This document shows, piece by piece, positions 4,429 to 6,711 of a stretch of DNA of 36,274 nt. Position numbers and translations under genes: made by a program. The stretch is from Candidatus Zixiibacteriota bacterium (GTDB lineage Bacteria > Zixibacteria > MSB-5A5 > GN15 > JAAZOE01): NCBI GenBank assembly GCA_043819555.1, contig JBDREQ010000070.1:1-36274 (forward strand). Direction: 5' to 3'. The stretch's first letter is position 1. Each line of letters starts with the position of its first letter. The notes beneath the pieces were generated by a model. That model saw only the letters and a list, made by a program, of their open reading frames with translations, was not told the DNA's origin and made no database searches.

Positions 4429-4746
4429 TCAATATTCTGGCCGGGCTGACCTACCACTCATTGTATTTGAGACTTTGTAAATAGTAATAACATTGGAGTG
4501 TTTTAGTGCAGTAGTTGCTTGAGTCTCATGTTTGAAACGAGCCCGGCAGTCATTATCCTGGCAAAGATTCGGAGGAAGAAACTTAAGAGCGACATTGCGT
4601 TTGAGCTTGGCAACTTCGTCCATATATACCTCACCCATCCCACCGGCGCCGATTTTCTCGACTATCCGGTAGTGGGACACCATCGTACCCTTGGTTAGGA
4701 CGATGTGGGTTTGGGTTTTATCGTTGTCATCTTGATTCAAAGACAT
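4429..4746 (-). pseudogene. Truncated Hanks-type Ser/Thr protein kinase (N-lobe only)
   Basis: 'YRIVEKIGAGGMGEVY', 'VALKFLP', 'RARFKHE', 'LKHSNVITIY' then stop; no HRD/DFG motifs; degenerate substitutions. Confidence 0.85.
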
Positions 4747-5186
4747 ACGCGTTAACCCTAATTTTATCAATGATGAATACCCCAAGAGCTTTGATAATAT
4801 AGACTAAATAATGCTCAAGAGCAATTAGAATATTTCAATCATTTTAGTACTGAAGCTCTTCCTCGTCAGCGTAATTCGGACACAGTTAACTTATTCTTAT
4901 AAAGGAATGGCTTGCATAGAAATTAATAGGTTTGATGAAGCGAAAGAGGCTATTAAAGAATTTATTGTTCGTGCTCCGGAGTCATGTGAGGAATACATTA
5001 AATTGGCCAAATTAGAGCTTTCTGAGATGGCTGGCTTGATATTCGAGTAGCGGGGATAGTAGGAATTGCCGGGCAAGTATAGCATCAAAGTCTCAAATGC
5101 ATTTATCATAAAATTCTTTCTCGATATTAAGCGGATTGAAAGCTTATAGTAAGAACTATTGCTTTAGTGGACACAAAATGGTCACC

Positions 5187-5201
5187 TATGAAAAGGCCGC
5201 T
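5187..5201 (+). repeat. IS1111 sub-terminal inverted repeat (downstream end) TATGAAAAGGCCGCT
   Basis: Exact reverse complement of 6470-6484. Confidence 0.95.
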
Positions 5202-5249
5202 GTCAAGGGTTATCTTTCTTCTTTCTGGTCCCTTGGACCCGAGTTCATT

Positions 5250-5397
5250 CGTCGGATTGTCTTAGTCACCTATTCGAGCTCTTCAGTTAGAAGGCTCACG
5301 ATATTGTTCTTTAGAAACGGCCGCCCACTCACAAAAACGGATTCTTTTCGATCCAGCCCAAATTTTCGGGCTGACCGCTCATATGCAATTCCGACTT
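5250..5397 (-). ncRNA. Bridge/seek RNA of the IS1111 element
   Basis: Closed by an outer stem (5251-5259 with 5386-5395); two hairpin-containing loops carry guides GGTC(A)/TTTTGTGA (target) and AATATC/ATAGGTGA (donor junction); exact ends unknown. Confidence 0.8.
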
Positions 5398-5409
5398 CTT
5401 GTTTACTTC

Positions 5410-6420
5410 TTACGCTGCCTCTGTCCGAAACGGCTCGTTACGATTGAGCATGGCATAGATAATGACCGCTAACTTCCGAGCTATGGCCACTCGTGCCTTT
5501 TGAACATTGCTGCGATAGAGAATACGACAGAACATCCGATTCAAATCCGGTGATTTCCGGACAGCATTGATCGAGGCTTCGACCAGAACATGACGCAGCG
5601 GTTTGGAACCATATCGGGTAATGCCGCCAGTCCAGACCGAATCCCCTGACGATCTAACAGTCGGAGTTAAACCAGTATAACTGGCTAAGGCTCTGGCGCT
5701 GTGGAAGCGTGCGACATCGCCTACTTCGGCGTAGACCACGGCTGAGCGCAGCTTACCAATCCCCGGAATGGTCTGAAGCAGCTCTACAGTATGGTTATCC
5801 TTCACACGCTCCCAGATTTCTTTGCTGATCTCCACTACCTGATCATCAAGCAGGGCGATGATCTTCAAACATTGATCAATCGTCTGTCTTGTGACATCAG
5901 GCAAACACAGCTTTCGGATCTCTAACTTGGCTTTGGGAGAAGATATGTTGAAGACCCGGAGGTCAATCCCGTGTTGAAACAGCAAATGACGGATGCGATT
6001 CTTGTTTGTAACCATACTTTTGACCAGATGATAACGCTGTCGAATCAGTCCCCGCAGCAGACGAATCTTCGCCGGAGGCACCCAGGACTCCGGCAGAAAG
6101 TTAGTTCGCAGAAGTTCAGCCAGTATGCGAGAATCGTATTTGTCTGTCTTACACTTCGACTCCGCAATTACCCGAACCTTGAACGGTGTCGCCACATGGA
6201 CCGAACCGACATACGGTTCAAATTGATCCAGTAACCACAAGTAATTCAGCACTGGTTCAAGAACTAGGTGAACTTTGGAGTTCAGCGAACTGGCGAAGGT
6301 TGAAACCTCCTCAAAGGTATTGCCAAACCTACTCTGGCGAATTACCTTTCCGATGGAATCGATCTCGGTGTAAACACACCATTTCTTGTGGACATCGATT
6401 CCCATATAGCTTTTTGACAT
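5410..6420 (-). CDS. IS110-family transposase/recombinase (336 aa)
   Basis: RuvC-like DEDD motifs 'GIDVHK', 'LEPV', 'KTDKYD'; 'TIPGIG'; 'YTGLTPTVRSSG' carrying the catalytic Ser; SD AAAGGAG before ATG 6420. Confidence 0.97.
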   Translation of the reverse strand: MSKSYMGIDVHKKWCVYTEIDSIGKVIRQSRFGNTFEEVSTFASSLNSKVHLVLEPVLNYLWLLDQFEPYVGSVHVATPFKVRVIAESKCKTDKYDSRILAELLRTNFLPESWVPPAKIRLLRGLIRQRYHLVKSMVTNKNRIRHLLFQHGIDLRVFNISSPKAKLEIRKLCLPDVTRQTIDQCLKIIALLDDQVVEISKEIWERVKDNHTVELLQTIPGIGKLRSAVVYAEVGDVARFHSARALASYTGLTPTVRSSGDSVWTGGITRYGSKPLRHVLVEASINAVRKSPDLNRMFCRILYRSNVQKARVAIARKLAVIIYAMLNRNEPFRTEAA

Positions 6421-6469
6421 GGCCGCTCCTTTATGGCTATGACTTGACTCAACAAAACATAACCTACTG

Positions 6470-6484
6470 AGCGGCCTTTTCATA
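6470..6484 (+). repeat. IS1111 sub-terminal inverted repeat (upstream end) AGCGGCCTTTTCATA
   Basis: Exact reverse complement of 5187-5201. Confidence 0.95.
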
Positions 6485-6638
6485 TAATATCACAAAATAG
6501 TAATAGGTGTTGTAATGTGTTACCAGTTAGTTACTTATCACACGCGAGCTTGAACTACAGCTTCAAGCGGAAATTCGGCAACATGTATTGCAATCGAATC
6601 CCAAAATGACATGAATATGAATTTAGAAGGCTGTAAAG

Positions 6639-6711
6639 CTCCCCCGGCTGGACTCGAACCAGCGGCCCGCTGATTAACAGTCAGCTGCTCTACCGACTGA
6701 GCTACAGGGGA
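6639..6711 (-). tRNA. tRNA-Asn(GTT), CCA not encoded
   Basis: TCCCCTG/CGGGGGA acceptor stem, D-arm TAGCTCAGTCGGTAGAGC, anticodon loop CTGTTAA, T-loop GGTTCGAGTCC. Confidence 0.97.

Follow-up and report, generated by a model that had tools for sequence, protein, structure and literature searches.

A predicted bispecific bridge/seek RNA encoded between the recombinase gene and the right end of an IS1111-group insertion sequence in a Zixiibacteriota genome

On the minus strand of the window, by which we mean the whole stretch of 36,274 nt that was analysed, a recombinase gene is followed by a long non-coding tail. This raises the question whether the tail encodes an RNA that tells the recombinase where to insert. 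The original prediction held that it does, and that four short strings in the tail are guides for both target strands and both donor strands. All four strings are indeed present on the minus strand (GGTCA, 5376-5372; TTTTGTGA, 5336-5329; AATATC, 5305-5300; ATAGGTGA, 5273-5266). When the 226-nt tail was shuffled 20,000 times, they arose by chance with frequencies of 0.20 for GGTCA, 0.065 for AATATC, 0.006 for ATAGGTGA and 0.002 for TTTTGTGA; the matches of GGTCA and AATATC therefore mean little when taken alone. The reading that we favour, with a probability of about 0.88, is that of an intact IS1111-group element whose recombinase would be directed by an RNA from the stretch that separates the stop codon from the right end. 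Identification of the downstream region as a putative bridge/seek RNA is supported by its anatomy and by covariation between guides and flanks.

Relatives of the element were collected in two scans. A scan of species-representative genomes gave 12 loci, 8 of them 77-95% identical in protein. A metagenome scan gave 87 relatives, the best 80 of which were kept, and about 35 of those were 51-94% identical. The relatives come from MAGs titled Ignavibacteriales and Zixiibacteriota. Right-end regions were aligned for 32 of them, and the 27 distinct and complete RNAs therein form alignment A1. Outside A1 stand L003, L010 and L075, which have internal deletions, and L005 and L085, which have the same RNA as L004 and L054. 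L007, L049-L052, L057, L059, L061, L066, L071 and L076, judged to be duplicates from the flank and end listings alone, are also outside it. A covariance model of the RNA matched directly after the recombinase gene in L017 (protein 40% identical) and near a truncated recombinase match in L018 (37% identical).

Several relatives are damaged. L010 (2007-2150) and L075 (2008-2116) have lost the target-binding half of the RNA and kept the donor half and the ends; the recombinase of L075 is truncated (residues 1-278). L003 (2524-2648; protein 91% identical) lacks about 25 nt, corresponding to the 3' arm of helix P4 and the left donor guide. In L005 (1-1530) the recombinase begins at residue 40, a DDE_Tnp_1 transposase ORF adjoins (L005:2-646), and the left end was seemingly lost to another insertion sequence. 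L054 and L085, each about 91% identical to the query, have a common left flank and different right flanks (ACCAAATTGTGACGG... and CCATATTTGTGCCATG..., respectively).

The boundaries of the element were set by an alignment of about 30 homologues, by insertion-free sites and by the head-to-tail junction of L058 (Table 1). At the left junction this copy reads ...CTATTTTGT GA TATTATATG..., the element starting GA-TATTAT, and at the right junction it reads ...CATAGGT GA CCATTTTG... All relatives have left ends of GA-TATTAT or GA-TACTAT and right ends of CATAGG(T/C). Insertion is site-specific and leaves no target duplication, as judged from the insertion-free sites and from a paralogous empty site in the same genome. 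Subterminal inverted repeats of the IS1111 group measure 7-17 bp and carry short extensions, the length range being that given in the available part of PMC11208160. The non-coding sequence of this copy is unevenly placed, with 226 nt after the recombinase stop codon versus 70 nt ahead of the start codon. As far as sequence can show them, the defining features of the IS1111 group are all present here, and the Pfam domains, the 14-bp subterminal repeats and the long downstream tail bear out the assignment to this group made in the original prediction.

Table 1. Observed and predicted features of the element and its surroundings in the window (compensatory and paired figures refer to the 27 RNAs of alignment A1).
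Feature	Position	Strand	Remark
IS1111-group insertion sequence	5184..6491	minus	1308 bp with the shared GA counted once
Left-junction GA (shared core as read in this copy)	6490..6491	minus	GA in 26/26 relatives that have a left end
Left subterminal inverted repeat ATGAAAAGGCCGCT	6470..6483	minus	6 nt inside GA; perfect 14-bp reverse complement of 5188-5201
Recombinase gene, 336 aa	5410..6420	minus	AAGGAG 7 nt before ATG
Bridge/seek RNA domain (predicted), 145 nt	5251..5395	minus	closed by outer stem P1
P1, outer stem GTCGGAATTG/CAATCCGAC	5395-5386 with 5259-5251	minus	4/9 pairs compensatory, 99.2% paired
Target-binding module closed by P2 (predicted)	5315..5380	minus	contains GGTCA (5376-5372) as paired bases
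P2, long-range stem	5380-5367 with 5327-5315	minus	9/13 pairs compensatory, 96.3% paired
Right target guide strand AAAATTTGGGCT, 5' side of loop	5355..5366	minus	complement tracks right flank
P3, hairpin GGAT-CGAAAAGA-ATCC	5339..5354 (5354-5351 with 5342-5339)	minus	2/4 pairs compensatory, 99.1% paired
Left target guide TTTTGTGA, 3' side of loop	5329..5336	minus	8-nt identity with left flank plus GA
Predicted right donor guide AATATC	5300..5305	minus	complement of GATATT at left end; 5' of P4 in multiloop
P4, hairpin GAGCCTTC/GAAGAGCTC	5275..5298 (5298-5290 with 5284-5275)	minus	4/9 pairs compensatory, 94.7% paired
Predicted left donor guide ATAGGTGA plus C	5265..5273	minus	identical to right end ATAGGTGAC; chance 0.001-0.006; extension agrees with right flank
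TTGACA, -35-like hexamer, right end	5201..5206	minus	TTGAC kept in 32/32 listed right ends
Right subterminal inverted repeat AGCGGCCTTTTCAT	5188..5201	minus	14 bp, 4 nt inside GA
Right-junction GA	5182..5183	minus	relatives: GA 18, GC 5, GT 2, GG 1, CC 1 (n = 27)
Right target half with second target-like repeat CCATTTTGTGTCCAC	5163..5181	minus	same tandem in insertion-free sites
tRNA-Asn (GTT)	6639..6711	minus	Rfam RF00005, 70.9 bits; ends 147 nt before left junction

An element running 11 nt further, to a second GTG, was suspected since the right flank repeats the target. This longer element was ruled out by three observations. L004 and L005, which come from one MAG, diverge right after CATAGGTG, the ends of L058 abut without extra bases, and the insertion-free sites already hold the tandem repeat, which therefore belongs to the target and not to the element. 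When the ends of this copy are abutted, TTGACA lies 19 nt before TG-A-TATTAT; an abutted sequence was seen only as the head-to-tail pair of L058. By analogy with the junction promoters described in the available parts of PMC11187229 and PMC11208158, TTGACA may be the -35 box of a junction promoter. In the 3.35-Mb assembly the element is single-copy, and its sole other match is a 50-nt piece on contig C23. There (C23 2167-2216; L002 1501-1550) about 26 nt of right end (TTGACCGCAGCCTTTTCATAAGTG) stand as a solo remnant directly before a target-like GGCCAAATTGTGGCCAC and then a T-run. The sequence upstream of this remnant is without recombinase gene or RNA, and it looks like the relic of an older insertion.

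The recombinase carries the Pfam domains PF01548 (7.1e-17) and PF02371 (5.7e-25). The catalytic residues of IS621 in structure 8WT6, whose roles are set out in the available text of PMC11208158, line up with D9, E55, D93, D96 and S258; the protein also aligns with the ISCro4 recombinase. The segment GLTPTVRSSG, in which S258 is aligned to the catalytic Ser of IS621, fits the motif GL-P----S(T)G reported in the available text of PMC11187229. With both domains and all five catalytic residues, the recombinase is intact, as had been proposed. The description of its 336 aa as compact did not hold, the length being typical against the 330-350 aa that the same source, in the part available, reports for IS1111 transposases.

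The secondary structure was predicted by RNAalifold on A1 and comprises four helices, P1 to P4. Over the whole structure 19/35 pairs show compensatory changes, compared to 8.5 ± 1.5 in shuffles, and 0/500 shuffles reached this value or any of five structure measures. When the partners were slid by 1-3 columns, pairing fell from 96.9% to 31-47% of cells. The outer stem proposed originally is real by this measure, since 4/9 of its pairs vary at both positions and 99.2% of cells form pairs among the 27 homologues, and so is the donor-side hairpin GAGCCTTC/GAAGAGCTC (4/9 pairs compensatory). Of the two hairpins placed after GGTCA, GGAT/ATCC stands (2/4 compensatory), but GCCCG/TGGGC, a local hairpin favoured by the single-sequence fold, has 0/6 compensatory pairs and 84.6% pairing and is replaced by P2. 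In L060 and L068 G29 becomes A, and only the distal P2 partner compensates. No Rfam family matched the RNA; between 4800 and 7000, with E-values of up to 1 admitted, the sole Rfam match is the tRNA.

Removal of the element rebuilds a target that can be read elsewhere in unbroken form. The native target of this copy reads TTTTGTGACC and then ATTTT. Seven insertion-free sites (L134, L136, L139, L141, L142, L144, L145), homologous to the right flank of L006, read ..(A/C)TTGTGACC-(A/T)3-(T/C)(T/C)GTG(A/T)C.. without interruption, which equals left flank plus GA plus right flank. They carry the tandem TTGTGACC-N3-TTGTGACC. The own genome holds ten copies of TTGTGWCC-N3-TTGTGWCC with at most one mismatch, all of them unoccupied, and no copy of the reversed control pattern. 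One of these, TTGTGACCATTTTGTGTCC on contig C78, equals the rebuilt target of this copy over 19 nt. The rebuilt target that was originally predicted is thus found both at the seven homologous sites and as a paralogue in the same genome. At the locus of this copy itself no empty site was found in relatives, either through the right flank (41 genomes) or through the left flank with the tRNA; neither flank is syntenic there.

We next consider how the RNA relates to these targets. Within the loop closed by P2, two single strands flank P3, and the strand on the 3' side ends in GA and copies the left flank. This left guide changes in step with the left flank, and does so in seven or more target classes: it tracks the flank in L073 (GGAACTGA), L074 (GGTTTCGA), L077 (GGCTTGA), L055 and L062 (TTTTGA) and L068 (GTGTGA), as well as in L017 (ACCCCTGA), where the protein is only 40% identical. 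In L003, which is outside A1, CTGTGA occurs in both guide and flank. The summed anchored run between left guide and own flank was 152 in 24 elements, compared to 114.3 ± 4.7 after shuffling (0/10000); L006 and L072, which are without a left flank, and L058, which has the same flank as L009, were omitted. For the 5' strand of the loop, six target classes or more show it following the right flank. In the close group AAATTTGG faces CCAAATT, in L055, L062 and L077 GTAGGTC faces GACCTAC, and in L079 CAGGTC faces GACCTG; the corresponding pairs are GGGGTCA and TGACCCC in L078, GCCGAAGC and GCTTCGGC in L018, and AAAACC and GGTTTT in L017. Here the nine-position identity sum was 167 in 25 elements (L009 and L058 omitted), compared to 126.9 ± 5.9 after shuffling (0/10000). 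Since the relatives share ancestry, both shuffle figures overstate significance, and the argument rests on six to eight separate target classes. The guide-flank matches hold in elements merely 37-66% identical in protein. In seekRNAs of the IS1111 family the top-strand match lies 5' of the bottom-strand match (PMC11187229, in the part available), and the same order is found in this RNA.

In this copy the left guide fits its own flank over 8 nt. The complement of the right guide, GCCCAAATTTTC, agrees with the right flank, GACCATTTT, at 6/9 positions with a contiguous run of 1. Because of this poor fit of 5366-5355, the RNA of this copy taken alone is not fully decodable, contrary to what had been claimed. 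One may ask whether the system works as described while this particular copy sits stranded at a site recognised by its left guide only, from which it would excise inefficiently. We regard this as possible but rather doubtful. The weak right-flank match, the single copy and the ten better or equal tandem motifs that stand unoccupied in the genome would all agree with it, as would the requirement of ISEc11 circles for the correct target sequence on both sides (available text of PMC11187229). However, the gene, the RNA and both ends are intact, and excision of IS621 is reported to be independent of target complementarity in the part available of a preprint (10.64898/2026.08.31.748434).

A further alternative is the decoding as first written, in which GGTC(A) serves as right target guide and all four guides meet on a GA core of strictly two bases. 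GGTCA does complement TGACC of the rebuilt target, GA is found at both junctions of this copy, and the junctions of L055 share only GA. Yet GGTCA, with its chance frequency of 0.20 in the shuffled tail, lies in P2 (columns 24-28 of A1), a stem with 9/13 compensatory pairs. It varies as GATCA, GATTA, AATCA, AGTCA, GGTTA and GGGCA, and its P2 partner changes to match, whereas the right flank is not followed: it is still ACC in L060 (AATCA) and L068 (AGTCA). The strand that tracks the right flank in the target classes given above is a different one. The proposed covariation of guides with flanks is thus borne out for TTTTGTGA, a single strand beside a conserved hairpin that tracks the left flank and can be accepted as the left target guide, and it fails for GGTCA, being found in 5366-5355 instead. 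Together with the right junction, which is not GA in 9/27 relatives, these observations make the decoding as first written very improbable.

The core itself deserves a closer look. The proposed GA core stands insofar as GA is common to both junctions here and is found at all 26 left junctions, but only 18/27 right junctions have it. The right target guide of the close group has GC at its end, at a place where pairing with GA would call for UC, which is what the guide of the distant group has there. We conclude that exchange would be centred on an invariant G with a tolerant second position, and that GA is a fair description of this copy, the cleavage positions being predicted ones. A TG or GTG core was also considered, given that right junctions differ in the base that follows GTG; the junctions of L055 (TTGA and GCGA) share only GA, and those of L074 only GA or CGA. 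With nine of 27 right junctions other than GA and a close-group guide ending in GC, GA is best called a candidate core.

The donor side is formed by AATATC and ATAGGTGA(C), which flank P4 in a multiloop formed by P1, P2 and P4. Donor-binding bases lie in a multiloop in many IS1111 elements (Durrant et al., PMC11208160, in the part available). Both strings are single strands beside conserved hairpins and match the donor ends, and we retain them as the predicted right and left donor guides, respectively. Donor guides and ends are almost invariant, so that covariation barely tests the donor pairing. One compensatory case was found in L074, with C in both the RNA and the right end (ATAGGCGA). The left donor guide has U facing G in L055, where a wobble is possible, and a mismatch in L056. 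In the right donor guide A/G variation faces T (A-T or G-T wobble), and five elements with GATACT ends keep AATATC and so would be mismatched. In the left donor guide, what comes after ATAGG(T/C)G follows the right flank and not the left end, with CTT/CTT in L018 and TG/TG in L017, the two informative cases on which this result rests.

The donor junction that had been rebuilt by joining the ends was also recovered. CATAGGTGATATTATATG is present in L058, where two copies that are 84% alike stand head to tail. Their ends (L058 685-2960) abut through one GA. The pair would fit an element that inserted at the left junction of a relative already resident there, or else a chimera assembled from reads of a circle junction. 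For this copy the predicted circle junction is CATAGGTGATATTAT. Neither a joint nor a circle junction nor an empty site was found in contigs from four sequencing runs. A run labelled metatranscriptomic (marked as probably DNA) gave a 457-nt contig with only the recombinase gene of a relative.

A tail that is only a structured 3' untranslated region, or an end bound by protein, and that resembles flanks and ends through repeated end sequence and not through guidance, would suit the donor-side strings, which copy the right end and are almost invariant, but this is the least probable reading of all, as guide strands change along with unrelated flanks (e.g. GGAACTGA, GGTTTCGA and ACCCCTGA, or GCCGAAGC/GCTTCGGC) and the architecture equals that of seekRNAs shown experimentally in the available text of PMC11187229.

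The favoured reading, an RNA-guided element, combines observations made directly on the sequence (the anatomy, the covariation of stems and target guides, the empty sites and the catalytic residues) with a mechanism that would run as follows. The tail would be transcribed and the RNA bound by the recombinase, which joins a DEDD RuvC-like domain to a Ser-bearing Tnp domain. Enclosed by P1, two modules would serve target and donor. In the target module, 5366-5355 would pair with the top strand of the target's right half, and TTTTGTGA (5336-5329) with the bottom strand of its left half, with P3 between them. In the donor module, AATATC and ATAGGTGA(C) would pair with the two sides of the abutted CATAGGT-GA-TATTAT. 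Strands would then be exchanged at or beside the G of GA, with no duplication left. The element may be active at present.

IS1111-family elements with seekRNAs are ISEc11, ISPa11, ISKpn4 and ISPst6 (Siddiquee et al. 2024, PMC11187229, in the part available). As that text describes them, they resemble this element in their subterminal repeats with extensions, a recombinase of 330-350 aa, a long downstream non-coding region, the top-strand match 5' of the bottom-strand match, the lack of target duplication and targets in repeated sequences. The long form of the seekRNA measures 145-170 nt in the same text, compared to 145 nt here, and the P2 module would correspond to the shorter, target-binding form. 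The element differs from these four, compared by description, in its target, the TTGTGACC tandem repeat near tmRNA and tRNA genes, and in its host lineage. With IS621 and ISCro4 (Durrant et al. 2024, PMC11208160; Hiraizumi et al. 2024, PMC11208158; 8WT6, 9T56), as described in the available parts of these articles, it has in common the two domains with D, E, D, D and S, and a bispecific RNA with target and donor modules, left and right guides flanking a stem-loop, and a shared core. In IS621 and ISCro4, however, the RNA lies at the left end, the donor guides lie in an internal loop and the core is CT, whereas here the RNA lies at the right end with reversed guide order, the donor guides lie in a multiloop, the core is G(A), and the subterminal repeats are long (14 bp). 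The handshake is on the right guides in those systems; here a handshake-like extension is possible on the left donor guide, a position not described for IS621. This extension resembles the handshake guides of IS621 in the available text of PMC11208158 but is on a different strand.

The insertion sites have a recurrent setting. A tmRNA gene has its 3' end about 80-135 nt away in five of the seven insertion-free sites. In L006 the element is about 130 nt from the tmRNA gene, and in L004 it is 45 nt after tRNA-Ser; ARAGORN, run on 13 loci, found only these two genes. Judged from these sites, the preferred target of the family is the first unit of TTGTGACC-N3-TTGTGACC downstream of tmRNA or tRNA genes. 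The motif copies of the own genome lie on C10 (5496, 5690, 7562, 11590), C46, C55, C65, C78, C28 and C76. The four on C10 fall within 6 kb, and three of them, like the copy on C46, stand beside tmRNA-3'-like fragments. Among relatives of G041, each genome contains several matches to the last ~25 nt of the tmRNA gene (e.g. 6 matches in G057). Recurring tmRNA 3' ends are the usual trace of islands integrated at ssrA. In L134, one of the seven insertion-free loci, the motif closely precedes an integrase gene (PF00589), and on C65 it lies upstream of an integrase-like 105-aa N-terminal ORF that is 29% identical to the integrase of L134 (85 aa, E 2e-9). A Pfam search of 38 flank ORFs and of 20 ORFs near the motif copies of the own genome found an integrase in L134 only, the others being ordinary genes.

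IS4321/IS5075 and the IS1111-attC group are IS1111 members aimed at a conserved repeat of other mobile elements. Compared to these, the repeat found here adjoins tmRNA and tRNA genes as well as tmRNA 3' fragments, and twice an integrase gene, from which we infer a link of the target repeat to integrative elements. It is conceivable, and we offer it only tentatively, that this lineage homes by RNA on an 8-bp tandem repeat that may be a protein-binding site in the attachment region of integrative elements that use tmRNA and tRNA genes, with a handshake-like extension of the left donor guide. If this is true, islands moved by integrases would systematically carry an RNA-guided element along or have one parked next to them. 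The idea that the target is the end of a Tn7-like transposon was dropped for want of support.

Bridge/seek RNA systems are a kind described in 2024, of which this locus is, as read from its sequence, a further natural member, and the known mechanism is unchanged by it. It adds a well-resolved natural bridge RNA of the IS1111 type from sediment bacteria. About 30 relatives re-aim the same scaffold at several targets, which makes the family useful for learning the guide rules of IS1111 elements, the branch that has been studied less, namely which loop positions pair, how far core mismatches are tolerated and what role the sequence after the left donor guide plays. The corrected right guide further illustrates how a short match read from a single sequence may lead astray, and why the covariation of stems has to be consulted.

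Adjoining the insertion, a 118-aa ORF (4429-4785, minus strand) contains only the first 69 of the 263 positions of a protein kinase domain and probably represents a kinase gene that has been truncated. In G001, a genome of the same genus, the DNA of this ORF is matched three times.
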